NCBI GenBank assembly: GCA_903921825.1
Contig: CAIXRF010000077.1
Coordinates: 1-29,332, forward strand
From: an uncultured Candidatus Micrarchaeota archaeon
Lineage (GTDB): Archaea > Micrarchaeota > Micrarchaeia > Burarchaeales > Fermentimicrarchaeaceae
Length of the DNA: 29,332 nucleotides
Reading direction: 5' to 3'
Positions 7,417-28,156 of this stretch are shown here, one piece after another (the first letter of the stretch is position 1; each line of letters begins with the position of its first letter). The translations under genes and the position numbers were made by a program. The notes beneath the pieces are model-generated. The model was not told where the DNA came from. It did not search any database and saw nothing but the letters and a program-made list of their open reading frames with translations.

Positions 7417-8736
7417 ATGAGGTCTATTATATTCGCTCTCGCCCTTGCGCTGCTCGTTTCAAGCGTTTTTGCAAAGCCGCCTGAGCTCCAGGCGCTTGCC
7501 TCCGTGACATCATTCGAGGGATGGAACTGCAATCCCACGGGCGGGCCATACACGTTCACCGCAACAATCTACATCGCCAACCCCTACAACGGCACGATGA
7601 CGGTAAATTACACCTATTACGATTACTATGCGGGAAGGGAAACGGATGGCGGCCGCGTGTGCATGATTCAGGCGAACAACGAGGACCACTGCTCGTTCAC
7701 AATCCCCGTCACGCTGGGCGGGGAGGCCGCGGGCAACGCGAGCATGTCCGTGAAGCTATTTGCGTCGATAGACGGGGTCAGCGAGCAGCCGGAGAAGCGC
7801 ATCGACTACTCGTTCACGCATGCGCCCGCATCCACGGAAACGAACTCCCTCGCGAGCATAGCCGCGACGCAGGCAAGGCTCGATGGGGAAAACGTCGCCC
7901 TCTCGTCCGCGTGCACCGCGAACGGCGTGTGCTGCGGGATGGCTGGGCCGCAGGAGAAGCTCTCCGCGGCTGGTAGCAGCCTTGCGCTCGCCAGGGAGCT
8001 TGTGAGGCAGTGCAAGTTCAGCGACGCGACCACTACAACCGCCGCAGCCTCCGCGGACATCAACGGTGCCAACTCGACTTACCATTCCACGTTCAGGCAG
8101 TGCCAGTCAGCCCTGAACAACTACGCGTTTGCATATGGCAACCTCACGCGCGCGAACGAGACGCTGCTTAAGCGCGCGGCATGCGGGATGAACGTTTCGG
8201 CCTCCCGCACGGAGCTCGCAAACTCGGAAAGGCTCCTGGCGCAGGGCGCCGACAGGATAGAGGCCGACGCCTACTCGGACGCGGTGCTTTACCTAGAGCA
8301 GTCGCTTGAGACCACGAACGTCACATTCACTCTTTCGAATGACTGCCCGCTGGCAGGCCTGGGCTCCGCCGGGAACGTTACCGGGCCATCCCAGTCGCAG
8401 ACGCCTCCTCCGCAGCAGGCACCCGGAGAAGACCCGCTGTCAAAGGTGATAGGCGCGCTCGGCTACATAGTGATAGCTGCGATAATCATAGTGGTTGGCG
8501 CGGCAATCTACGTTTCGCTGGGCAAGAGGCACCTCGAAGGGATGATTAGCCGCGGGCCGCGCAGCGGCGCGGAACACCCCGGCGCACCGCCATCGCCAGG
8601 CGCGGAGCCCTCCGAAGAGCTGCCCCCGATTGACCACACCAAGGTGGAAGAGGAGTTCCAGGAGTGGCTGAAGAAGAGCGAAGCCGCGGAAGAAGCCCCA
8701 ACTGAAAAGCACGAGAAGCGCGGCAAGAAGAAATGA
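7417..8736 (+). CDS. Surface protein with a Sec signal peptide, an NxS/T-rich ectodomain, a C-terminal TM anchor, and a Lys/Glu-rich cytoplasmic tail.
   Basis: [19 protein letters not shown] is the signal peptide. ...[29 protein letters not shown] is the TM helix. The tail ...[29 protein letters not shown] is charged. TATA ggctttatatagc is at ~7373-7385 and the RBS aggtga at 7405-7410. Confidence 0.6.
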
Positions 8737-8792
8737 GGCCCGCGGCAAATCCATTTGAGCAGCCGCGGCAAAAACATTCCAAGGTGGTCGAG

Positions 8793-10679
8793 ATGGGTCA
8801 TAAGAACGCATTAGTTGCAGCCATCCTTCTGGTCGTGCTCTTCACGGCACGCGCGCCCGCAGCATCCGCGCCTGGGACGCAGCCGGCCGCTTTCGTAATC
8901 CCGAATTTCGTGGAAAACGGTTCCGCCTGGCATCGTTTCACCGTGAATGTCTCAAATCCCGCGAACGGGACAGCCTACAACTACGTCATAATGATATGGC
9001 CCGAAGCGGCCGCTTGGGAAGACCCGGGCCAGAGCGGATGCAGCGGCGGAGTGGTCGGAGTAAACAACAATAGCATCTACTGGAGAACGAGCAACTGCCC
9101 GCCACTGGGCGGCAGCATGGTCTTCAGCTTCGGCAAGGCGCTCAACCCAGTAAGCCTGAACACCACAAAGACAGTGCAGGTCTATGTGAGCAACGACAGC
9201 GGCGCAACGCTGGTGCCAGTTTCACCAACGAGCGGCTCGCCTGGCATCTGCACCGGCCCGATGAACAACCTGCAGATATGCCAGTACCTGCCCCCTCCCC
9301 CGAAGGTCATCAGCTCCTGCCCATACACAATAAACGCGCTGGCCAACTACACATTGGACGACAACCTCACCGCGGCAAACACGACGTGCATCGGAGTTAT
9401 GAGCGGAGGCAGCGGCTCAATGATAGACTGCAAGGGCCGCACTATAAACGGCACCGGAATGGCATACGGCATCTACCTGAACGACGCGAGTGGAATCCTG
9501 CTGAAGAACTGCACAATTACGCACTTCGAACGCGGAGTCTACCTCCTCAATGCCAGAAACAACACCATCCAGGACAGCTCATTCAACCTGAACGGCATCG
9601 GCGCCTACCTCTCCTCAAGCAACAACAACTCATTCCGCCGCGACAACTTCTCGGCAAACATCAATGACGGCGTACTAGTGCAGACCTCAACTACCAACGT
9701 ATTCGCCACCAATGAAATGTGCGCCGACCCGACCTACGGCGCTTACTGCTCCACGGCGCAGACCGGCGGGAGCAACAAGTGCGACACGGCCAAAGTCTCT
9801 TGCACTGGAATAACGTGCGGGACCGCATGCCCTACGCCCGCGCCCACCCCAACCCCAACTCCAACCCCGACACCGACGCCTACGCCAACTCCAACTCCCA
9901 CGGTGACGCCTACACCCACCGCGACGCCAACTCCAACCCCAACCCCCACACCAACGCCGTCTCCAACACCTACTCCAACTCCTACGCCATCCCCAACTCC
10001 GGCGCCCGGAACAATCACGTCCTGTCCCTACACGATAAGCATGCAGGGAAGCTATGCCCTCAACTCCAACCTGCAATCATCCGGCGGAACGTGCATAGGT
10101 GTAGGGACGGGAGGCAGCGGCTCCACGATTGACTGCAAGGGCCACACAATAAACGGCAGCGGCACAGGCTACGGAATCTACCTCAATGGCGCGGGCAGCA
10201 ACACGGTCAAGAACTGTACAATAGAGCATTTCGACAAGGGCGTCTATTTCCTCAACGCCAGAAACAACACCATCCAGGACAGCAACTTCATCCTCAACAG
10301 CTACGGCGCCTACCTCTCCTCAAACAGCAATGGCAACAGGATAACGAGCTGCGTCATGAATGCCAACGCCTACAAAGGGCTGTTCGTGCAGGCGTCGCGC
10401 GCCAACAACGTGAGCGCCAGTGAGGTTTGCTACAATGGCGACCCAATCTACGACCTCTACTGCTCCGCCGCGCAGGCGGGCGATGGCGGGAACTACTGCA
10501 ACACCACGAGAGCCCGCTGCAGCGGGATAACTTGCGGCTCGCCCTGTCCAGTTGTGACTCCAGCGCCCACCCCATGCATACCTGATGGGGACCCCTGCGG
10601 CGAAATCCCGTGCTGCTCAAGCTACTGCCATGGCGGGCTGGTATGCGGCCCAATGGTAACCCCAACGCCCACACCATAG
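8793..10679 (+). CDS. Secreted modular protein A: N-terminal unknown domain, two Cys-framed PbH1 (parallel beta-helix) modules separated by a long (PT)n linker, and a small Cys-rich C-terminal knot.
   Basis: Signal peptide [26 protein letters not shown]. The module ITSCPYTI...GGSGS(M/T)IDCKG(R/H)TINGTG.GYGIYLN...[34 protein letters not shown]..... occurs twice. The second-module version differs in places. The first module ends in [10 protein letters not shown]...[41 protein letters not shown]. The track start 8733 is replaced by ATG 8793 because the upstream word aaggtggtcgag ATG is shared with the next gene. Confidence 0.8.
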
Positions 10680-10712
10680 CCGATGCTCTGCCCTTTCTTG
10701 GTGCTGAGCGTT

Positions 10713-10733
10713 GCCGCCCTGAAAGCTATTTAA
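10713..10733 (+). promoter_or_regulatory. Conserved promoter block gccgccctgaaagctatttaa (TATA ctatttaa) upstream of modular protein B.
   Basis: The 21-mer matches 14199-14219 at 20 of 21 positions (a/c differs at position 10). It sits 37-44 nt upstream of ATG 10770. Confidence 0.5.
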
Positions 10734-10769
10734 GCAACCACCTGCAAATCAAACTCCAAGGTGGTCGAG

Positions 10770-13700
10770 ATGAATCCTAGGTCCGTTGTAGCGTCTATCC
10801 TGTTTGTCGCACTGTTTGCCGCGTTCGCTGCTGCGGCGCCTCCGGTTACCCACCAGCCGTCGCCAGTATGTTCCCAATACAACGAGACCAGCACAGGCTG
10901 TACGCCATATACCGGGCCACTCCTGAGTGATTCAGACGTCCAGAAAGAAGTCGGTGCCATTAACCAGAAGATAACGGAGCGAAATCTCAACTGGGTTGCA
11001 GGGGACAACTGGGTCGTGCGGCTGCCCGAAGCGGAGAGAACGCGCCTCCTGGGCGCAAAGCTATTTTCCCCGCAGGAAATGGAAGCGGCGGGCGTAAAAC
11101 CACTGTCTTATACTCCGGGCACAACGTTGCCGGTCGCTCTTGACTGGAGGAATAACGGAGGCAACTGGACCACGTCGGTAAAGAACCAAGGTGGATGCGG
11201 CTCGTGCTGGGCCTTTTCCGCGGATGGGGTCGTAGAGTCGCGGATGAACATCGATTTGGGCATCCCGCAATTCAATTATGTCCTTTCCGAGCAGGACCTT
11301 GTTTCCTGCTCCGGTGTAGGAAGCTGCAGTGGCGGCTACGAGGACCTGGCTATTGGCTATATTAATAATACTGGAACCACCAACGAATCCTGTTTCTCGT
11401 ACCAGGCATCCGACGTGTCATGCGGACTGAAATGCGCCAATTGGCAGGACCAGAAGGTGCGTGTAACCAATTATAGCTATGTCGCTGCCGGTGCCAACGC
11501 CATAAAACAGGCACTGAACACCTATGGCCCAGTTACCGTATCCATGCCTGTTTTTTCTGACTTCTTTGACTATTCCGGAGGCATTTATACCAGAACGTCT
11601 GACTATCTTGAGGGCTTCCACGCAATAGACATCGTCGGCTACAACGACACTGGCGGATACTGGATTGTTAAAAACAGCTGGGCTACCACCTGGGGTGAAA
11701 ACGGTTATTTCAGGATGAGCTATTCAGAAGATACAAACTATTCGACTTGGACTTGTTTTACTGTGTATGCCAGCTGTTCTCAGCCAGGCTCCTTTTTCAT
11801 GGACCAGAGCGTTGCCGTCATGAGCACAAACGCGCCAAGCCTGTTCAACTTCGGGTCGGTTTCGGGCTATGTGTTTGACGACCTAGCGCAGGGGATTGCG
11901 AGCGCAATTGTCAACGTGACGAATGCAAGCGGCTCGCCAACGAACCTCACGAATGCAAGCGGTTACTACATAATCGGTGTCGTTCCCGCCGGAACCTTTA
12001 GCATCAGCGCGAGGAAAAATGCCTCTCTTGGCACCAACACAACCACCGTGACCGTGGTTACAAACACCACCACCAATGTCAACTTCACTCTGTATGCGCC
12101 AACTCCGATTCCAACGCCAACCCCCGTGGTAATCAGCAGCTGCCCCTACACAATAAGCGCCCCAGGTGCCTACGTCCTGTCGTCAGACGTCAATTCGGCA
12201 AGTGGCTCGTGCATCGCCATATCCACGGGAGGCAGCGGCTCCACGCTTGACTGCCAGAACCACACAATAAACGGCAGCGGCACAGGCTACGGAATCTACT
12301 TCAACAGCGCAAGCGGCAGCATGGTAAAAAACTGCACTGTGAAGCGCTTCGCGCGCGGAGTCTACCTCTCCAGTGCGCGCAACAACACCATCCAGGACAG
12401 CGCATTCAACTCGAACAACTACGGCGCCTACCTATCCTCAAGCAACAACAACTCATTCCGCCGCGACAACTTCTCGGCGAACACCGCTGACGGCGTCTAT
12501 GTGGCGAGCTCAACTACCAACGTATTCGCCACTAACGAAATGTGCGCCGACCCGACCTACGGCGCTTACTGCTCCACTGCTCAGACAGGCGGGAGCAATA
12601 CCTGCAACTCATCCAAAATCTCTTGCAGCGGAGTAACGTGCGGCTCACCCTGCCCAGGCACGACTCCAACGCCTACACCCACTCCAACTCCAACACCCAC
12701 GGTGACGCCCACACCTACCGTTACGCCAACCCCCACTCCAACTCCGACTCCCGGCCCACCCACGCCCACCCCAACAGCTACCCCCACGCCAACTGCGACT
12801 CCAACTCCAACACCAACTCCAACCCCGACGCCCACCCCCACTCCAACTCCAGCGCCCGGAACAATCACATCCTGCCCATACACGATAAACGCCCCAGGTG
12901 CCTACATCCTAACGTCAAACATCAATTCGGCAAGCGGCACCTGCATTGCAATATCCACAGGAGGCAGCGGCTCCACGCTTGACTGCCAGGGCCACATGAT
13001 AAACGGCAGCGGCACAGGCTACGGCGTCTTCCTCAATAGCGCGGGCAGCAACACAGTCAAGAACTGCACTGTGAAGCACTTCGACAGGGGCATCTACCTT
13101 TCCAACGCCAAAAACAACACCATCCAGGACAGCTCTTTCAACGTAAATGCCTTCGGCGCCTACATCTACACCAACAGCAACAACAACTCTTTCCGCCGCG
13201 ACAATTTCTCAGCTAACACCAACAGAGGCGTCTATGTGATTTCCTCAACTACCAACGTATTCGCCAGCAACGAGATATGCGCCAACCCCACCCAGGACGC
13301 CTACTGCTCGGTGGCGCAGACAGGCGGGAGCAACACCTGCAACGTATCCAAAATCTCTTGCAGCGGAGTAACGTGCGGCTCACCCTGCCCAGGCACGACT
13401 CCAACGCCTACACCCACACCCACTCCAACCCCGACCCCGACGCCTACGCCCACTCCAACGCCCACGCCAACAGTAACACCAACGCCCACGGTTACGCCTA
13501 CGCCTACCGTGACGCCAACTCCGACTCCAACACCGACACCCACGCCAACTCCTACTCCAACCCCAACGCCGTCTCCAACGCCAAGCGGGACGGTCATTAC
13601 AACCTGCCCATACACAATAAGCATCCCAGGCACTTACATCCTCAGCGGAAACCTCAATTCGGCGAGCGGGACGTGCATAGGAATGACATCAGGGGGCAGC

Positions 13701-14141
13701 GGCTCCACGCTTGACTGCCAAAACCACACGATAAACGGCAGCGGCACCGGCTACGGAGTTTACCTAAATAGCGCAGGCAGCAGCACAATCAGGAACTGCA
13801 CAATCGAGCACTTCGACAAGGGCATCTACCTCTCCAACGCCAAGAACAACACCATCCAGGACAGCAACCTCATCGTCAACAACTACGGCGCCTACCTAGT
13901 GGCGAGCAGCAACGGCAACAGGATAACGAGCTGTGTCATGAACGCCAACACCTACAAGGGGCTGTTCGTGCAGACGTCGAGCACCAACAACGTGACCGCC
14001 AGCCAGACTTGTTTCAATGGCGACTCGATGTACGACCTCTATTGCTCCACGGCGCAGAGCGGGAACGGAGGCAACATCTGCACCACTTCGAGGGTTTCCT
14101 GCGGCGGAGTGACATGCAGCAGATCCTGCATCCCCGCCTAG
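10770..14141 (+). CDS. Secreted modular protein B: signal peptide, possible propeptide, papain-like C1A cysteine peptidase, CarbopepD_reg-like beta-sandwich, then three PbH1 modules joined by (PT)n linkers.
   Basis: Signal peptide [24 protein letters not shown]. The peptidase motifs [22 protein letters not shown] (Cys active site), [35 protein letters not shown] (His/Asn) and LSEQDLVSC read like papain itself. A CarbopepD_reg-like stretch (GYVFDD...[34 protein letters not shown]) follows. Then come three ~180-aa modules matching those in genes A and C. The track start 10761 is GTG. ATG 10770 follows the aaggtggtcgag word. Confidence 0.85.
12110..14141 (+). repeat. Three tandem module-plus-linker units (period ~733 bp) with high nucleotide identity. 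The same module recurs in genes A and C.
   Basis: Modules start at ~12131, 12865 and 13597 (atcagcagctgcccctacacaataagc...). Related copies start at 9309, 10017 and 14335. The string ggaggcagcggctccacg(c/a)ttgactgcca recurs at ~10110, 12229, 12961, 13693 and 14437. Confidence 0.75.
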
Positions 14142-14150
14142 CCAAAGCAC

Positions 14151-14172
14151 CTTCTTTTCCTTTTCTTTCCGT
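14151..14172 (+). terminator. T-rich tract after protein B. Candidate terminator.
   Basis: The sequence cttcttttccttttctttcc follows directly after the TAG at 14139-14141. Confidence 0.3.
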
Positions 14173-14198
14173 CTTGGCAGCGGCAGCTTTCCGGCGCG

Positions 14199-14220
14199 GC
14201 CGCCCTGCAAGCTATTTAAA
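14199..14220 (+). promoter_or_regulatory. Conserved promoter block gccgccctgcaagctatttaaa (TATA ctatttaaa) upstream of modular protein C.
   Basis: It matches 10713-10733 at 20 of 21 positions (c/a differs). It sits 34-42 nt upstream of GTG 14254, with a caaggtga word in between. Confidence 0.5.
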
Positions 14221-14253
14221 CTACGTGAGGCAAAAAAGAGTCAAGGTGATTTC

Positions 14254-16062
14254 GTGAGTCCTAGACCCCTGTTTGCGCATGCATTCTTGTTCATCGCACT
14301 TCTTGCGGCTTCCGCTGCAGCACCCGGGATAGCAATCACTTCCTGCCCGCGCACGATAAACGCCCCAGGCACTTACGTCCTCACCTCGGACCTAAACTCT
14401 CCGGGCGGGACGTGCATAGGCGTGGGCGCAGGCGGCAGCGGCTCCACGATTGACTGCCAGGGGCACCTAATCAGGGGCCCCGGCGCTGCGGGCTACGGGC
14501 TCTATCTCAACGGAGCGAGCTACGTTACGGTGCGGAACTGCACATTCCGGAGCTTCGACCGCGGAATATACCTCTCCTCAGCAAGGTACAACACCATTCA
14601 GGACAGCTCTTTCAACGCGAATAATATCGGCGCATACATCTATTACAACAGCAACAACAACACGTTCCTGCGCAGCAACTTCTCGGTGAACCGCGACAAA
14701 GGAGTATACGTATTCACATCCATAGGCACCGTATTCACCACCAATGAAATGTGCGCTGACCCAACCTACGACGCCTACTGCTCATCGGCGCAGACCGGCG
14801 GGAGCAACACTTGCGACACTGCCCTGGTCTCCTGCTCTGGCGTCACGTGCACGCATGCATGCCCAACCCCAGGGCCGACCCCCACGCCGACCGCCACCCC
14901 CACTCCTGTTCCGCCGACGCCCACCCCAACTCCGACTCCCGGCCCACCGACGCCCACCCCCACAGCCACTCCAACGCCCGTTCCGACGCCACCAGCATGT
15001 GCCTCGCCTGGCGGGGTTGTGAGCACCTGCCCATGCACCATCAACGCGAAGTCAAACTACTCCCTAAACCACAGCCTGACCGCCAACGGCACCTGCCTCA
15101 CATTCAACACAGGCGCAAGCAATTCCACGCTTAACTGCAACAACTTCAGCATCACCGGTCAGAACAACGGATACGGAATCCTCATGAACGGCGCCTATTA
15201 CATGAACGTGACGAACTGCAACGTGACCAATTTCACCTACGGCTTCTACCTGAGCGGGGCCAGCAGCAACAACATCCGCGCAAGCAGGGTATACCTGAAC
15301 ATATACGGCTTCTTCCTGAGCTACGCCTCCAACAACAACATCACCAGCAACACCGTCTGCTACAACCCAGTGGACCTCTACTGCGAGGCTTCACCGGGCA
15401 ACGCAGGCAGCGACGTCTACGACCGGAACACCGGGTGCGTGAGCATCACCAAGAGCGCATCCTGCCCGCCAGCCCCAACGCCTACGCCAACTCCCACGCC
15501 TGCGCCCACCCCTACTCCAGGCCCAATCACCATAAACGCATGCCCATTCACCATAAACAGCGCAGGGACATACCGCCTTACCCATGACCTCACAGCGAAC
15601 GGGACGTGCATAGGCATAATGAGCGGAGGAAGCGGCGCAATACTGGACTGCTACGGCTACGCCCTCTTCGGGAACGGCACAGGCTACGGGATTTACATGC
15701 AGACGAACAACGTCCTTGTCACCAATTGCGAAGTCAGCGGCTTCGACCGCGGCATTTACATGAAGAGTTCCAGCAGCAACAACTTTTTAGCAAACCTGCT
15801 CGAGCGCAACAACATCGGTGCCTACCTCTACGGCAGCAACTACAACCACTTCGACAGCAACATATTCGTCTCCAACCGCGACCGGGGGATTTACGTGCTG
15901 ACCTCGAGCAACAACCAGTTTTACAACGGCGAGATATGCTACAACGGAAACAGCAACAACGATGTCTACTGCTCAACTGCCCAGACTGGCGGGCTCAACG
16001 TCTACTGCGACATCTCGCGGATTTCCTGCCCCGGCGTAACCTGCGATGTGGGCTGCCCCTAG
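14254..16062 (+). CDS. Secreted modular protein C: one canonical and two diverged PbH1 modules with (PT)n linkers.
   Basis: Signal peptide MSPRPLFAHAFLFIALLAASAAAPG. Module 1: [44 protein letters not shown]...[24 protein letters not shown]...[41 protein letters not shown]. Later modules (TCPCTINAKSNYSL..., NACPFTINSAGTYRL...) are more diverged but keep the NxS/T-rich beta-helix periodicity and the terminal ...YCSTAQTGG...SCPGVTCDVGCP. GTG start. Confidence 0.8.
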   Translation: MSPRPLFAHAFLFIALLAASAAAPGIAITSCPRTINAPGTYVLTSDLNSPGGTCIGVGAGGSGSTIDCQGHLIRGPGAAGYGLYLNGASYVTVRNCTFRSFDRGIYLSSARYNTIQDSSFNANNIGAYIYYNSNNNTFLRSNFSVNRDKGVYVFTSIGTVFTTNEMCADPTYDAYCSSAQTGGSNTCDTALVSCSGVTCTHACPTPGPTPTPTATPTPVPPTPTPTPTPGPPTPTPTATPTPVPTPPACASPGGVVSTCPCTINAKSNYSLNHSLTANGTCLTFNTGASNSTLNCNNFSITGQNNGYGILMNGAYYMNVTNCNVTNFTYGFYLSGASSNNIRASRVYLNIYGFFLSYASNNNITSNTVCYNPVDLYCEASPGNAGSDVYDRNTGCVSITKSASCPPAPTPTPTPTPAPTPTPGPITINACPFTINSAGTYRLTHDLTANGTCIGIMSGGSGAILDCYGYALFGNGTGYGIYMQTNNVLVTNCEVSGFDRGIYMKSSSSNNFLANLLERNNIGAYLYGSNYNHFDSNIFVSNRDRGIYVLTSSNNQFYNGEICYNGNSNNDVYCSTAQTGGLNVYCDISRISCPGVTCDVGCP

Positions 16063-18890: not shown

Positions 18891-19823
18891 ATGCAAAAAC
18901 GACTCGCGCCCCCAGCGACGGACGAAGACGCAAGGGCGCAGGCAGCCATATCCCGGAGAGCCATAAAGCTTGAGGAGAGCCGCCTGAACATAACCGCGCT
19001 CCCGGAGAGATATAAAAAATCAATGAAGTGGCTCTCCGACATGGCTAAGTTTAACGCCGATAGAGCGAAGGTCCAGAAGCTGAAAACAATCACGGTGCAC
19101 GTAATAGGAGTTGGCGGGGAAGAAGGCCCCCAGGTCAGTGAATTGATTCAAGCGCTGAAGCCGTTTGCCAGCGAGCTCGTAGTGCATGTTTCCGACATAC
19201 GGAAAGACTTGGCCGAGGCCGCTTCAAGGAAGGCCGGGGAGGAGTTTCCAGACGTGCGCATCATATCACACAATTTGGACGTAACCGCGCCAACGCCTGC
19301 CTCGGAAATTAACGAAAAGGCGGATTTCGTCATATGCACGAACGTCATTCAGCACGTGAATCCCGCGGAGCACAGATGGCTCGGGTTCTTCCACGTCTCT
19401 TCCCTTGTCAAGGTCGGGGGATACGTGCTCATCGGCGGGAAGGACGCGGAATTGCCGCCGTGGGGGAAATTCCACAAAAGCGAAATAATTTTTGCGATGC
19501 TATCCACGAGCAGGCATCAGGAATACGAGTCTTCGCTGCCCGATTTCGGCCTGGAGCCGAAGGCCATTATTGAAGAACAATACCCTCTGTTCGAACAAAA
19601 ATTCATCGAGGGAGAAAAGCGCTCGGCACAGAGGCCTGATGGTTATGGAAGCCCTTACGCTAGCGCCGGTTACGAGGGCATTCTCCTAGAAAAGACAGGG
19701 GAGCCAACGATGGCGTTCAAAGACTTGTGGAAAAGAATCGTGGAGATGGGAAAGGCTGCAGCCGAAAGGGAGGAAGCGGACGATAAGCCCGCGCCCAATA
19801 GTCCGGGCAAAGGGCTTGGATAA
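18891..19823 (+). CDS. Hypothetical protein with a possible Rossmann-like, SAM-methyltransferase-like core. Low confidence.
   Basis: The tracked ORF is 310 aa. Weak MTase-like motifs: VHVIGVGGEEG ... ADFVICTNVIQHV ... VGGYVLIGG. GC and codon usage are lower than in neighbouring genes. It is preceded by a 117-nt AT-rich spacer. Confidence 0.45.
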   Translation: MQKRLAPPATDEDARAQAAISRRAIKLEESRLNITALPERYKKSMKWLSDMAKFNADRAKVQKLKTITVHVIGVGGEEGPQVSELIQALKPFASELVVHVSDIRKDLAEAASRKAGEEFPDVRIISHNLDVTAPTPASEINEKADFVICTNVIQHVNPAEHRWLGFFHVSSLVKVGGYVLIGGKDAELPPWGKFHKSEIIFAMLSTSRHQEYESSLPDFGLEPKAIIEEQYPLFEQKFIEGEKRSAQRPDGYGSPYASAGYEGILLEKTGEPTMAFKDLWKRIVEMGKAAAEREEADDKPAPNSPGKGLG

Positions 19824-19943: not shown

Positions 19944-20099
19944 TGCCATGGGTGGGATTTGAACCCACGACTTCCAGAATACACCGCAGCGAGCGGAACA
20001 ACGCCCACTACTTCACTTTATCATCGCCGCAAAGCGGCTCATCACTCATCAAGCTGAGCTTATGAGTCTGGCACTCTAACCAGGCTGAGTTACCATGGC
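19944..20099 (-). tRNA. tRNA with anticodon CAU (elongator Met, or Ile2 if C34 is agmatidinylated), carrying a ~80-nt intron at the canonical 37/38 position. No CCA is encoded.
   Basis: On the minus strand the acceptor is GCCATGG/CCATGGC and the D arm is ACTC-AGCCTGGTTA-GAGT. The anticodon arm is CCAGA-CTCATA[intron]A-TCTGG and the T arm is GTGGG-TTCAAAT-CCCAC, with discriminator A. Mature length is ~75 nt. G1:C72 and a non-GGG anticodon stem argue against an initiator. Confidence 0.8.
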
Positions 20100-20123: not shown

Positions 20124-20135
20124 ACTTTAAATAGG
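20124..20135 (-). promoter_or_regulatory. TATA box (tatttaaag on the minus strand) for the tRNA gene.
   Basis: It is centred ~30 nt upstream of the tRNA 5' end at 20099. It is the only AT-rich word in this GC-rich region. Confidence 0.5.
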
Positions 20136-20136
20136 T

Positions 20137-20400
20137 GAGCGGCGGGCCATAGTCCACCTTGAGTTTTCGCAGCATTCGACTAAGCGGCCGAAAGGCCTTG
20201 CGCCACTATCCCCCGAAGGGGGCTGCCTCCAGCCGGGCGCGTTTCATCCGCCGCAGCCCAAGTCCGCTTGCGCGTCATGCTTAAAGGGCTGCGGAGGTTC
20301 GTTTCTGTTCCCGGCCCGGGCCTTAAACCCGTGCAGGCAGTTCATGGCGGGCGGAACTTCCTCACGGGGCGAACCCCGCGTCAGCTGCGGCCCACCGCTC
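20137..20400 (-). ncRNA. Candidate structured ncRNA of ~260 nt. Class unassigned: SRP RNA, an RNase P-like RNA, or something else. Strand uncertain, minus favoured.
   Basis: This 264-nt GC-rich stretch is crossed only by two long opposite-strand ORFs (20344..21129, 20362..21048) that I regard as GC-driven artefacts. A 12-nt terminal helix pairs 20137-20148 (gagcggcgggcc) with 20389-20400 (ggcccaccgctc) at 11 of 12 positions. Internal GC hairpins have tetraloops (ggccGAAAggcc, cccccGAAGggggg, cggggCGAAccccg). The palindromic TATA words TTTAAATA at 20125-20133 and 20422-20431 flank it. The right-hand one is ~25 nt from the 20400 end. Confidence 0.3.
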
Positions 20401-26317: not shown

Positions 26318-28156
26318 TCACATCGGGCATGGAGTGTATGACGGTATTGCGCAGCCCGTCTGCTGGTAAAACGTGTTGTTGCTGCCGATTGTCTGTGTGT
26401 TGCTGCACCAGAGGTCGTTCCACGCTATCCCCCGCATGTTGTAGCAGACATAATCATCCGTTAGATTGACCGTGTTCGTGCCGATGGTCATGTTTACTCC
26501 TGTCGCAAAGTTGATGACGCTGCAGTTCTCGATGGTCATCGGAGCTTTCACGAGTATGCCCGTGCCAAAGTTATCCGTATTGTTTATGAAGTTGCCGCTG
26601 CAGTTCAGCGTCGAGCCTTCCGCCCCAGACTCGAAGTCTATGCACGGGAACGTTCCGCCGTAGTTGTTTATCTCGTGGGTCAGGTAGTAGCTTCCGGCTG
26701 CGCTCACCACCGTTCCGCAGTATGCTATCTCGCCGCCTGGCTCCGGCGTGTGCATGGTGCACGGCGCGGCCCTCATGATTCCGCCGCAGCCCGTGTTCGT
26801 GTCAAACGTGTCATCGCCGGAGTTGCCGCTTCCGCCACCGCAGCTGAAGTCCGTAGGGTTGGAGCAGACCGTGTTGCCCGTTATGTTGTTGCTGCTGCTG
26901 GACACGGCCAATTCAACGCCCATAGCGCTGTTCGACTCGATGGTGTTTCCGGAAACGTTGTTGCCGTTGCTGCTGTAGATCTGGAGGCCATGCCCGCAGG
27001 AGTGGGCGTTCAAGCTAAGCGTGTTCCCAGTAATTGTATTGCCATTGCTGCCGGACTCCATCGAGATGCCATTGCAGTTCGAACTGGCATCGTTGTCCGT
27101 GATGTTGTTGTTGCTTGACCCAGAGAGGTACATGCCAGCGCCCACATGGGCGTCTTCGCTGAGGACGTTGTACTCCAGCGTGTTGTGCGCAATGTTGTTG
27201 CCGTTGGACGCATACAGGTAAATGCCCACCTCAAAATACCTCACGGTGCAGTGGCTGACATTCACATTGCTCATGCCCCATGACAGTATGCCTGCGCCCC
27301 AGTTGGTGTTGCCCGTGATTACGTTGTCATTGCAGTCAAGGGTCGAGCCGGATGCGCCTGGAGTGACGTTTATGCAGCTGCAGTCAAAAGATCCGCTTGG
27401 GCAGCTGCTGCCCCCGGTCAGCGGGCCGCTGAGCGTGTAGTCGCCCTGAACGGTTAGCTCCGAGCCTGCTGGCCATGGCGTGTTCGGGTCGCAGGTGGTG
27501 ATTACCTCACTAATTGGCGTCGGAGTCGGAGTGGGCGTAGGCGTCGGCGTAGGCGTTGGCGTCGGAGTTGGAGTCGGAGTGGGCGTCGGAGTAGGCGTAG
27601 GTGTAGGCGTTGCCGTCGGAGTCACCGTGGGCGGCGGAGTTACTTGCTGCACCGCTATCTCCTCATACTTCAGCGACACATCTGCGGCGACCTGGCGCGT
27701 GAACCCCGTGTCCAGCTCCACGTATTCAACGAACATCTTCCCCTTGAACAGGTTGCCTGCCCTTCCGGTTGCAGTGCTGCCATCCTCACTGTGGCACACC
27801 TTTGAGCCGCTTTGGATGAACGCATGGTCCCCATCCACTATCATGACTGGGCTGTCCAGCGCGTCGCCAGAGCCTAGCACCGGCGAGCCCTCCGCGGTGC
27901 ACCTTATCCTCGTGACGTTTATCTGGTGGCCCGTGGACTGGCCGAAGTCAATCCCGAAATTGCCAGTGGTGTTCAGAAGAGGGCCTTTGCACAGGAAATT
28001 CGCCGGGAAGACGCACGTTGAAGCGAGGGGCGTCCTCGGGTTTATCAGGCCGACCCACAGCAGCATGCCTATCGCCACGAGCATTATCAGAATCGCCCAC
28101 CCGTAGGTGGTCAAGTATTCTATCGCCGACTGCCCGCGCAAAGTTTTTGTCGCCAT
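26318..28156 (-). CDS. Pilin-like (class III signal peptide) protein fused, through a long (PT)n linker, to a parallel beta-helix (PbH1/NosD-like) domain.
   Basis: MATKTLRGQSAIEYLTTYGWAILIMLVAIGMLLWVGLINP, then a ~140-aa pilin-like globule, then [35 protein letters not shown]. After that come GN(T/N)I(T/S)(G/D)N repeats (ITGNTLSLNAHSCGHGLQIYSSNGNNVSGNTIESNSAMGVELAVSSSSNNITGNTV...). RBS GGAGGGGTG upstream. Confidence 0.8.
   Translation of the reverse strand: MATKTLRGQSAIEYLTTYGWAILIMLVAIGMLLWVGLINPRTPLASTCVFPANFLCKGPLLNTTGNFGIDFGQSTGHQINVTRIRCTAEGSPVLGSGDALDSPVMIVDGDHAFIQSGSKVCHSEDGSTATGRAGNLFKGKMFVEYVELDTGFTRQVAADVSLKYEEIAVQQVTPPPTVTPTATPTPTPTPTPTPTPTPTPTPTPTPTPTPTPTPISEVITTCDPNTPWPAGSELTVQGDYTLSGPLTGGSSCPSGSFDCSCINVTPGASGSTLDCNDNVITGNTNWGAGILSWGMSNVNVSHCTVRYFEVGIYLYASNGNNIAHNTLEYNVLSEDAHVGAGMYLSGSSNNNITDNDASSNCNGISMESGSNGNTITGNTLSLNAHSCGHGLQIYSSNGNNVSGNTIESNSAMGVELAVSSSSNNITGNTVCSNPTDFSCGGGSGNSGDDTFDTNTGCGGIMRAAPCTMHTPEPGGEIAYCGTVVSAAGSYYLTHEINNYGGTFPCIDFESGAEGSTLNCSGNFINNTDNFGTGILVKAPMTIENCSVINFATGVNMTIGTNTVNLTDDYVCYNMRGIAWNDLWCSNTQTIGSNNTFYQQTGCAIPSYTPCPM

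Follow-up and report, generated by a model that had tools for sequence, protein, structure and literature searches.

Introduction

What is an 81-nucleotide intron doing in the anticodon loop of an archaeal tRNA gene, and could it be directing the modification of the very tRNA that it interrupts? This question is raised by a tRNA(CAU) gene in a 29,332-nucleotide stretch of DNA from an uncultured Candidatus Micrarchaeota archaeon (contig CAIXRF010000077.1 of GenBank assembly GCA_903921825.1), which we refer to as the window. An original prediction, made from the letters of the window, tentatively suggested that the intron might be a guide RNA for 2′-O-methylation of its own tRNA. The comparative evidence presented here favours this suggestion. 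We propose that the intron is probably a box C/D-type guide with a single kink-turn, and that it would direct the 2′-O-methylation of the wobble nucleotide C34 in its own pre-tRNA-Met before splicing. The proposal draws on the architecture of the intron, on conservation and covariation in a set of 21 introns, and on an antisense element that is identical, in core sequence and in register, to those of known guides for the same nucleotide.

Results

An interrupted tRNA gene

The gene is 156 nucleotides long and occupies 19944..20099 on the minus strand, as do all of the gene features described below; we read them along the RNA, from high to low coordinates. The Rfam tRNA model (RF00005) matches the window from 20099 to 19944 with a score of 55.6 bits (E = 1.4e-9) and approximately 83 nucleotides inserted in the anticodon loop. 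These coordinates coincide exactly with those of the original prediction, whose wording about the RNA strand implied the minus strand. With its intron search enabled, ARAGORN calls a tRNA-Met(cat) with an 81-nucleotide intron; at default settings, i.e. with no intron search, it called no tRNA at this locus. These matches confirm the original prediction of a tRNA(CAU) with an anticodon-loop intron of about 80 nucleotides. The clean CAU cloverleaf that was expected of the exons is also recovered: excising RNA positions 40-120 in silico leaves a 75-nucleotide product, which ARAGORN draws as a clean tRNA-Met(cat) cloverleaf.

Rfam, ARAGORN and our analysis of the junctions place the intron at 19980..20060, between tRNA nucleotides 37 and 38 (or 38 and 39). 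Following the cloverleaf of the spliced product, the 5′ exon (nucleotides 1-37, 20061..20099) reads GCCAUGG UA ACUC AGCCUGGUUA GAGU G CCAGA CUCAUA on the RNA strand; it holds the acceptor strand GCCAUGG, the D arm, the anticodon-stem strand CCAGA and the loop CUCAUA, and 7 nucleotides separate GGTTAGAG from CTCATA. The 3′ exon (nucleotides 38-73, 19944..19979), which is delimited by Rfam and by the same cloverleaf, reads U UCUGG AAGUC GUGGG UUCAAAU CCCAC CCAUGGC A. Between the two, the 5′ half of the intron reads AGCUCAGCUUG AUGAGU G AUGA GCCGC UUU GCGGC GAU GA U AA and the 3′ half reads AGUGAA GUAGUGGGCG UUGUUC CGCUCGCUGC GGUGUA.

The intron module and its predicted target

The candidate guide sequence is AUGAGU (20044..20049), an antisense element that is the exact complement of tRNA nucleotides 31-36. 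This complementarity defines the predicted target segment, ACUCAU (20062..20067), and the two segments are paired with each other in the minimum-free-energy structure computed with RNAfold. The spacer between loop and antisense, AGCUCAGCUUG (20050..20060), can form a 4-base-pair mini-hairpin together with A37 (AAGC-UCA-GCUU, also from RNAfold), which extends the guide/target helix beyond one bulged G.

The original prediction had found no box D, and there is indeed no CUGA on the RNA strand of the intron. Its role would be filled by AUGA (20039..20042), a D′-type variant of CUGA that is replaced by CUGA itself in 7 of the 21 family members and in the corresponding intron of Nanoarchaeum equitans. 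In box C/D guides the target nucleotide pairs with the fifth nucleotide upstream of box D or D′. Counting back from AUGA (G, U, G, A, G), this fifth nucleotide is the G at 20047, which pairs with C34 (20064), and C34 is therefore the predicted target.

The GA of AUGA directly adjoins the hairpin GCCGC-UUU-GCGGC (20026..20038) and forms the non-bulged strand of what we read as a kink-turn. This perfect hairpin was noted in the original prediction; covariation across the 21 introns identifies it as the canonical (C) stem. From the sequence, the bulged strand is G followed by AUGAUAA (20018..20025), and it can be divided into the 3-nucleotide bulge GAU, the GA of the sheared pairs, a U opposite the U of the D′ box, and AA. 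AUGAUAA is a C′-type box with six of seven matches to RUGAUGA. A second GAUGA, which the original prediction had also pointed out, is present at 20025..20021 and corresponds to the bulge plus part of this box. At the level of the sequence, then, the intron has a canonical stem, a 3-nucleotide bulge, tandem sheared G.A/A.G pairs and a non-canonical stem. A check of the whole intron for kink-turns and box D elements recovered this one kink-turn with its D′-type AUGA and no second kink-turn.

The 3′ half of the intron is occupied by a hairpin, GUAGUGGGCG-UUGUUC-CGCUCGCUGC (19986..20011), with 10 base pairs including G-U pairs in the RNAfold structure. This hairpin is lineage-specific and is not found in short members of the family such as L172. 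We also considered a second kink-turn around it, which we rejected: there are no G.A pairs, and the GUGA is not conserved in the homolog L125. An H/ACA-like guide was rejected as well, the intron having no ACA box and no pseudouridylation pocket.

A family of tRNA(CAU) introns

We searched metagenomes with the pattern CTCATAA N{4,24} ATGAGNG[AC]TGA N{9,25} GATGA, which matched at least 120 loci (L133-L252). Among the matches listed, 23 are tRNA(CAU) genes with the match inside an anticodon-loop intron, the others being mostly heptamer-repeat arrays. The family set comprises 21 distinct sequences, including the window and L125, and all counts out of 21 refer to the matches listed together with these two. 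Set by the pattern are the loop CUCAUAA, the elements AUGAG, xUGA and GAUGA, and the G that precedes the box; free to vary are the sequence between the two boxes and the single nucleotides that follow AUGAG and GAUGA. A pattern for the 3′ exon, TCTGGNNGTCGTGGGTTCRAATCCCAC, was too loose to be of use, as its matches in the genome collection (at least 120 loci, L001-L120) are almost all bacterial tRNA genes.

The free positions are the informative ones. The nucleotide after AUGAG pairs with tRNA nucleotide 31 in all 21 members, as A-U in 13 and as G-C in 8, with no unpaired case. The hairpin between the boxes is flush with both of them in nearly every lineage and has a different sequence each time, e.g. 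GCCGC/GCGGC, GCGC/GCGC, GCU/AGC, AACCUUU/AAAGGUU, GGUUUA/UAAACC, GAAAACC/GGUUUUC, GAAACCUU/AAGGUUUC, GAGC/GCUC, GAC/GUC and GUC/GAC. When the columns are extracted and aligned, each of the four hairpin pairs next to the boxes has varied in both of its partners. The covariation score reaches 0.363, compared with 0.106 +/- 0.019 in shuffles, none of 500 shuffles scores as high, and sliding the partner columns as a control gives scores of 0.092 at most. The nucleotide after GAUGA is U in 14 members and C in 5.

Some members come closer to the textbook form of these elements than the window does. In L235 the 3-nucleotide bulge is explicit (AAU), and the C′ box after it is a perfect AUGAUGA. This bulge, and the covariation of pairs flush with both boxes, led us to set aside an alternative C′ register in which GAUGA supplies G3-A7 and no bulge is present, as it has been drawn for N. 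equitans. In several members the guide/target helix has 9-10 contiguous base pairs. The spacer between loop and antisense varies in sequence and ranges from 4 to 18 nucleotides. Three members with CUGA (L182, L163 and L240) have short loops with 0-2 base pairs instead of the hairpin; L182 combines its canonical CUGA with a 9-nucleotide loop in place of the hairpin and a 10-base-pair cis guide helix. The contig that carries this last member, Ga0256839_1000017 (229 kilobases), encodes an eIF6 whose nearest relative is a protein of Ca. Geothermarchaeota (61%), so that the family probably extends beyond DPANN archaea.

The homolog in L125 (L125:2680-2835) was reached by way of neighbouring proteins, and is the sole ortholog from this route. 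It comes from a relative with a GTPase that is 80% identical. Over the first 41 nucleotides of its intron, which span the spacer, the antisense, the D′ box, the hairpin and the C′ core GAUGAU, it matches the window letter for letter. The differences lie elsewhere: three pairs of the T-arm have changed in a compensatory way, and 7 substitutions fall in the 3′ part of the intron.

The genes of this family are not always interrupted only once. L219:9505-9686 (minus strand) and L246:877-1058 (plus strand) are tRNA-Met genes that share the acceptor stem of the window and have three inserts, of which the first is at 30/31, the second, at 37/38, contains the kink-turn module and a perfect bulge-helix-bulge, and the third interrupts the variable region. 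More than one interruption also appears to be present in L163, L215 and L220. Another relative, L131, with a GTPase that is 62% identical, has several interrupted tRNA genes at 2068-2200, 2275-2345 and 2435-2591. One of them resembles tRNA-Phe(GAA) and is interrupted twice, after nucleotide 30 and at 37/38. Its first insert has a 12-base-pair hairpin followed by GAUGAA, the same order of stem, GAU and GA as in the tRNA-Met module, and a GUGAUGA adjoins the anticodon loop CUGAA.

Most of the false positives of the search, such as L176, L177, L200, L229 and L231, with many more in the range L133-L252, consist of GTGATGA heptamer arrays and, after them, inverted TCATCAC arrays. These would form long perfect hairpins and bear no relation to the tRNA-Met module. 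Six of the array loci (L157, L170, L198, L216, L218 and L232) have a common conserved upstream block, TTTCCCGAAAAGACCTTAATGCCGCC.

Comparison with known guides and intron RNAs

The nearest described relative of the module is found in N. equitans. The 66-nucleotide intron of its elongator tRNA-Met gives rise to a stable and abundant RNA (31,500 reads). It has a six-GC hairpin, a single box D and a single, imperfect box C, and was termed a potential C/D box small RNA (sRNA) (Randau 2012, Genome Biol 13:R63, PMC3491384). Its sequence is GCAUGGGCU AUGAGCU CUGA CCC-GAAA-GGG GAUGAU CUC GGGGGC-UCUUAU-GCCCCC UCGUGA (PMC3491384 supplement). The host gene and the location are the same as in the window, and so is the order of elements: AUGAG, two nucleotides, a D-type box, a short hairpin, GAUGAU and a G+C-rich 3′ hairpin, with GGGGGC/GCCCCC standing where the window has its own 3′ hairpin. 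The antisense-to-box distance is equal (AUGAG-CU-CUGA-[10 nucleotides]-GAUGAU in N. equitans, AUGAG-UG-AUGA-[13 nucleotides]-GAUGAU in the window), and both introns have just one C-type and one D-type box. The N. equitans intron differs in having CUGA and a CCC-GAAA-GGG stem where the window has AUGA and GCCGC-UUU-GCGGC, and in that its expression and stability as an RNA have been shown, whereas the window member is known from its DNA alone. The N. equitans intron has a U where our pattern required a G, so that it was not selected by the search and provides independent support. Judged by these features, the module is an N. equitans-type tRNA-Met intron RNA; the paper describes neither the pairing with C34 nor a wider family, and it is the proposed target and the wider covarying family that we add.

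The second comparison is with guides that act in trans on the same nucleotide. In haloarchaea the C/D guide sR-tMet serves Cm34, the 2′-O-methylated form of C34, in the elongator pre-tRNA-Met (Joardar 2011; alignment in Grosjean 2008, Additional file 5), and its role in the formation of Cm34 is listed as established in a review. In Pyrococcus, sR49 is predicted to be the trans guide for Cm34 of the elongator pre-tRNA-Met. The haloarchaeal guide reads CCCUAUGAGUG followed directly by CCGA, or GCCCUAUGAGUG followed by CCGA in the alignment (Grosjean 2008). The antisense core AUGAGUG thus stands immediately 5′ of a D-type box, in the same register as GCUUGAUGAGUG followed by AUGA in the window, and the target, C34 of tRNA-Met, is the same. 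The haloarchaeal and Pyrococcus guides act on the intron-containing precursor, as we propose for the window. They differ in being separate genes that have all four boxes (C, D′, C′ and D) and a terminal stem, while the guide of the window lies inside the intron and has a single kink-turn. No trans guide of this sort was recovered in the window, the reverse complement of the exon-intron junction occurring nowhere else in the 29 kb. Their 12-nucleotide guide pairs also with the first bases of the intron, whereas in the window the predicted partners are exon bases 31-36, and some homologs extend this pairing. In the genomes known at the time, the tRNA-Met guide was described as 'always exonic' (Grosjean 2008). 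Besides the work on N. equitans, our full-text search of the literature returned no paper on a tRNA-Met intron guide.

The classic intron-encoded C/D guide is that of the archaeal pre-tRNA-Trp (in Haloferax, Pyrococcus and others), which directs the formation of Cm34 and Um39. As is proposed for the window, the guide lies in the 37/38 intron of its own tRNA and is aimed at the wobble position. Methylation has to precede splicing, and guide and splicing conformers compete, as would be the case in the window too. The pre-tRNA-Trp intron differs in its host tRNA and in having both C/D and C′/D′ motifs, with two guides and two targets, where the window has one of each.

A box C/D kink-turn has a canonical stem closed by G-C, a 3-nucleotide bulge ending in U, tandem G.A/A.G pairs and then a U.U pair. 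The sequence of the window can be read in just this way, with a G-C-closed stem, the bulge GAU, tandem G.A/A.G and U.U. It departs from the general form at the fourth pair, which is A opposite A instead of G-C, and in that its canonical stem is a capped hairpin and not a terminal stem.

Splicing of the intron

The original prediction placed the intron at the canonical archaeal 37/38 position, as fitting bulge-helix-bulge splicing by the tRNA endonuclease. The exact position has an ambiguity of one nucleotide, since a cut at 37/38 leaves the loop CUCAUAU and a cut at 38/39 leaves CUCAUAA, which is the placement of ARAGORN. We used a bulge-helix-bulge geometry in which nucleotides 32-35 pair with intron positions -6 to -3, and the 3-nucleotide bulges are U36-A37-(+1) and (-2)(-1)-38; this agrees with the published drawing of the H. 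volcanii pre-tRNA-Met (Grosjean 2008). In a pairing check, the intron 3′ end GGUGUA (19980..19985) occupies the position of the partner for CUCA (nucleotides 32-35). Its GGUG forms only two of the four central-helix pairs (C32-G and C34-G), so that the motif of the window is degenerate. The outer helix h′ has 2 base pairs, and a strict bulge-helix-bulge search of the window precursor found none at the exon-intron junctions.

The homologs are more regular. In 9 of the 21 members CUCA is fully paired, with UGAG (L219, L236, L220 and L252) or with UGGG (L181, L192, L199, L235 and L240), and the bulges are the correct 3 nucleotides long. By eye, L137 and L146 also have UGGG ends, for which our script had chosen the wrong start of the 3′ exon. 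Most of the remaining members have three of the four pairs. The GGUGUA end with two pairs is shared by the window, L125 and L182, and, by eye, L164. The pairing in the homologs supports a canonical 37/38 intron. The position given in the original prediction is therefore compatible with the family, most of which pairs CUCA with UGAG or UGGG, but the splicing motif of the window itself is reduced to two pairs. With the intron at 35/36, 36/37 or 38/39 the mature loop would be unchanged or almost so, and a canonical motif is absent from each of these placements. A CUGA near the 3′ end of the L219 intron was considered as a box D and turned out to be the UGAG strand of the splicing helix.

The intron 3′ end and the antisense compete for the same bases of the CUCA loop, and the guide and splicing conformers are thus predicted to be mutually exclusive. 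This suggests an order of events. In the pre-tRNA, AUGAGU would pair with nucleotides 31-36 (ACUCAU), forming a hairpin at the expense of the last anticodon-stem pair. The kink-turn, consisting of AUGA, the 5-base-pair hairpin, the 3-nucleotide bulge and AUGAUAA, would lie directly 3′ of this duplex, where it may be bound by L7Ae, which would recruit Nop5 and fibrillarin. By the fifth-nucleotide rule, the 2′-OH of the wobble C34 would then be methylated to give Cm34. Afterwards the precursor would have to refold, given the competition for the loop, so that the bulge-helix-bulge can form and the splicing endonuclease can remove the intron.

Identity of the tRNA

An anticodon CAU can belong to initiator or elongator tRNA-Met or to an agmatidine-dependent tRNA-Ile2. 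An initiator is marked by A1-U72 and by an anticodon stem whose lower end has three G-C pairs, neither of which is seen here: the stem is CCAGA/UCUGG and the acceptor begins with G1-C72. The tRNA is most likely an elongator tRNA-Met rather than Ile2. This assignment is favoured by the homology of the intron to that of the N. equitans tRNA, which is annotated as elongator Met (Randau 2012, PMC3491384), by the GCC start of the acceptor stem, also found in the Cm34-bearing elongator tRNA-Met of H. volcanii (Grosjean 2008), and by the aim of the predicted guide at the 2′-OH of C34. Intron-containing CAU tRNAs are elongator Met in Pyrococcus, Methanococcus and Haloferax (Grosjean 2008 among the sources).

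Weighing the evidence

Several observations weigh against the proposal that the intron guides the methylation of C34. The contiguous guide/target duplex in the window has 6 base pairs, reaching 10 only with a bulged G, and across the family it ranges from 6 to 10, compared with the 10-12 nucleotide antisense norm of canonical C/D sRNAs. The AUGA and AUGAUAA boxes put A opposite A where the non-canonical stem usually has G-C. Neither the intron of the window nor any other of the 21 members has a terminal box C/D pair, leaving one kink-turn only. Standard archaeal C/D guides carry two motifs, and with its single kink-turn the module is therefore not a standard two-motif box C/D sRNA. The Rfam C/D models match below threshold, with 13.8 bits for sR5 (cut-off 40) and 12.1 bits for sR23 (cut-off 45), all cut-offs being at least 37. 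Genes for L7Ae, Nop5 and fibrillarin are absent from the 29-kb window. The target of the N. equitans intron RNA is listed as 'no prediction' (PMC3491384). Finally, the spacing in the 20 metagenome members was set by the search pattern, and as regards spacing only the window lineage and N. equitans are independent.

How well do other explanations fare with the same evidence? The words on which the module is built might be chance matches in a GA-rich intron with no function, given that a kink-turn skeleton by itself (GA, 4 or more stem pairs, 3 nucleotides and GA) is seen in 13% of shuffled introns. Once AUGAGU is required in register with this skeleton, however, just 9 of 200,000 mononucleotide shuffles of the intron suffice, and neither the 21 members with their covariation nor the perfect preservation of the module in L125, despite its T-arm changes, would be expected by chance; we regard this explanation as scarcely credible. 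The original prediction saw a box-C-like word in GAUGAGUGAUGA (20050..20039). Taken literally, this would make the intron a conventional box C/D sRNA in which GUGAUGA serves as box C, another C-like box follows, and box D has been lost or escapes notice. GUGAUGA is a perfect match to RUGAUGA, and the weak Rfam matches on the RNA strand (sR5, sR23, sR18 and sR7) point the same way, although none exceeds 13.8 bits against cut-offs of 37-45. The alignment contradicts this reading. A G in front of AUGAG is present in only 3 of the 21 members, and the same count holds for the upstream G that makes the first 'UGAUGA' in the window, a word that we regard as accidental. The homologs with CUGA read AUGAGCGCUGA in this segment, with GCGCUGA in place of GUGAUGA, which leaves no possible box C; the segment is better read as the antisense AUGAGU, a G and the D′-type box AUGA. 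The same homologs led us to reject a variant with GUGAUGA as box C and the hairpin inside the non-canonical stem. The 13-nucleotide hairpin between the boxes leaves no space for a guide of 10-12 nucleotides, and a terminal stem and box D were found in no member. A conventional C/D sRNA is thus very improbable.

Two further explanations keep the kink-turn and differ in what it is for. It might bind L7Ae in a purely structural or processing role, e.g. in stabilizing the intron, in holding the loop in a hairpin or in timing the splicing, with no methylation at all. A single kink-turn with no second C/D motif and a duplex of 6 base pairs would suit such a role; the N. equitans intron accumulates as a stable RNA for which its authors predicted no target, and the competition between the guide helix and the bulge-helix-bulge helix could itself serve as a folding or timing device. 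Yet a plain helix has no need of the N+5 geometry, which is also present in N. equitans, outside the selection made by our pattern. The antisense and its register also equal those of the haloarchaeal Cm34 guides for tRNA-Met, the pair at nucleotide 31 covaries, and the target is a position known to be 2′-O-methylated in archaeal elongator tRNA-Met. We think a structural role by itself unlikely. Alternatively, the same guide may act in trans, with the excised and possibly circularised intron, as a ribonucleoprotein, or another precursor methylating C34 of other tRNA-Met molecules, two of these RNAs perhaps sharing a Nop5 dimer. In vitro work on the pre-tRNA-Trp favoured a trans-acting intron ribonucleoprotein, tRNA introns are circularised and stable in several archaea, and the N. 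equitans intron is abundant. Half-mer box C/D RNAs have been reconstituted in published work, and one kink-turn per RNA would, by extension from this, fit two RNAs on a Nop5 dimer. The cis hairpin, on the other hand, is very favourable, it is part of the minimum-free-energy fold, and several members have tight loops of 4-7 nucleotides. Sequence does not tell cis from trans, and action in trans seems to us possible, if rather doubtful. Methylation of C34 in cis by a single-kink-turn guide remains the reading that we favour.

Genomic context

A TATA-like TTTAAA, recognized by its sequence, lies at 20126..20131, 27 nucleotides upstream of tRNA position 1, and is probably the archaeal promoter of the tRNA itself; TTTAAA is the box A consensus given for the tRNA promoters of N. 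equitans (Randau 2012, PMC3491384). Further upstream, on the same strand, an archaeal RNase P RNA (RF00373, 95.7 bits) at 20400..20137 ends 37 nucleotides from the tRNA. A block made up of a helicase, the GTPase, two small open reading frames (117 and 93 amino acids) and the RNase P RNA is kept in the relatives L121, L122-L124 and L125, and the tRNA-Met directly adjoins this block in the window only. In the relatives L121-L124 and L128-L132 the helicase, the GTPase and the RNase P RNA are present and the tRNA-Met is not; the contig of L121 stops within the RNase P RNA.

The neighbouring genes are archaeal, and include a phosphopantothenate synthetase, a geranylgeranyl reductase and NosD-type surface proteins. 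For the neighbouring GTPase, the best matches among named organisms come from DPANN archaea, led by Ca. Iainarchaeum (52%) and followed by Aenigm-, Micr-, Woese- and Nanoarchaeia. Three large proteins with NosD/right-handed beta-helix repeats stand in a row at 8733-16062 on the plus strand, one of which (10761-14141, 1126 amino acids) also has a papain-family C1 peptidase domain, and a further NosD protein is located at 26318-28156 on the minus strand. An open reading frame of 310 amino acids (18891-19823, plus strand) is convergent with the tRNA and ends 120 nucleotides from its 3′ end. It has a weak, sub-threshold match to an S-adenosylmethionine-dependent methyltransferase family (PF08242, 21.8 bits against a cut-off of 30).

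Implications

Taken at its broadest, our proposal is that of a natural 'half-mer' guide: a single D′/C′ kink-turn with a short cis antisense, present in many archaea (DPANN-like, and at least one TACK-like), that would methylate C34 of its own tRNA and act as a conformational switch enforcing methylation before splicing. This wider claim, which like the narrower one comes from comparing sequences, is one that we believe and doubt in equal measure.

If our reading of the intron is right, a natural C/D-type guide would work with one kink-turn and 6-10 nucleotides of cis antisense. This would bear on the positioning of Nop5 and fibrillarin, for which the usual model relies on two motifs. The abundant tRNA-Met intron RNA of N. 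equitans would gain a concrete target. As a practical matter, the 45-nucleotide module is a simple signature for interrupted tRNA-Met genes that are overlooked by default tRNA finders, as was the case here with ARAGORN. Lastly, Cm34 of the elongator tRNA-Met would be formed in archaea either with the help of a trans-acting sRNA, as in haloarchaea and Pyrococcus, or by the intron itself, as in the family described here, which would contradict the earlier generalisation that guides for tRNA-Met are always separate genes.

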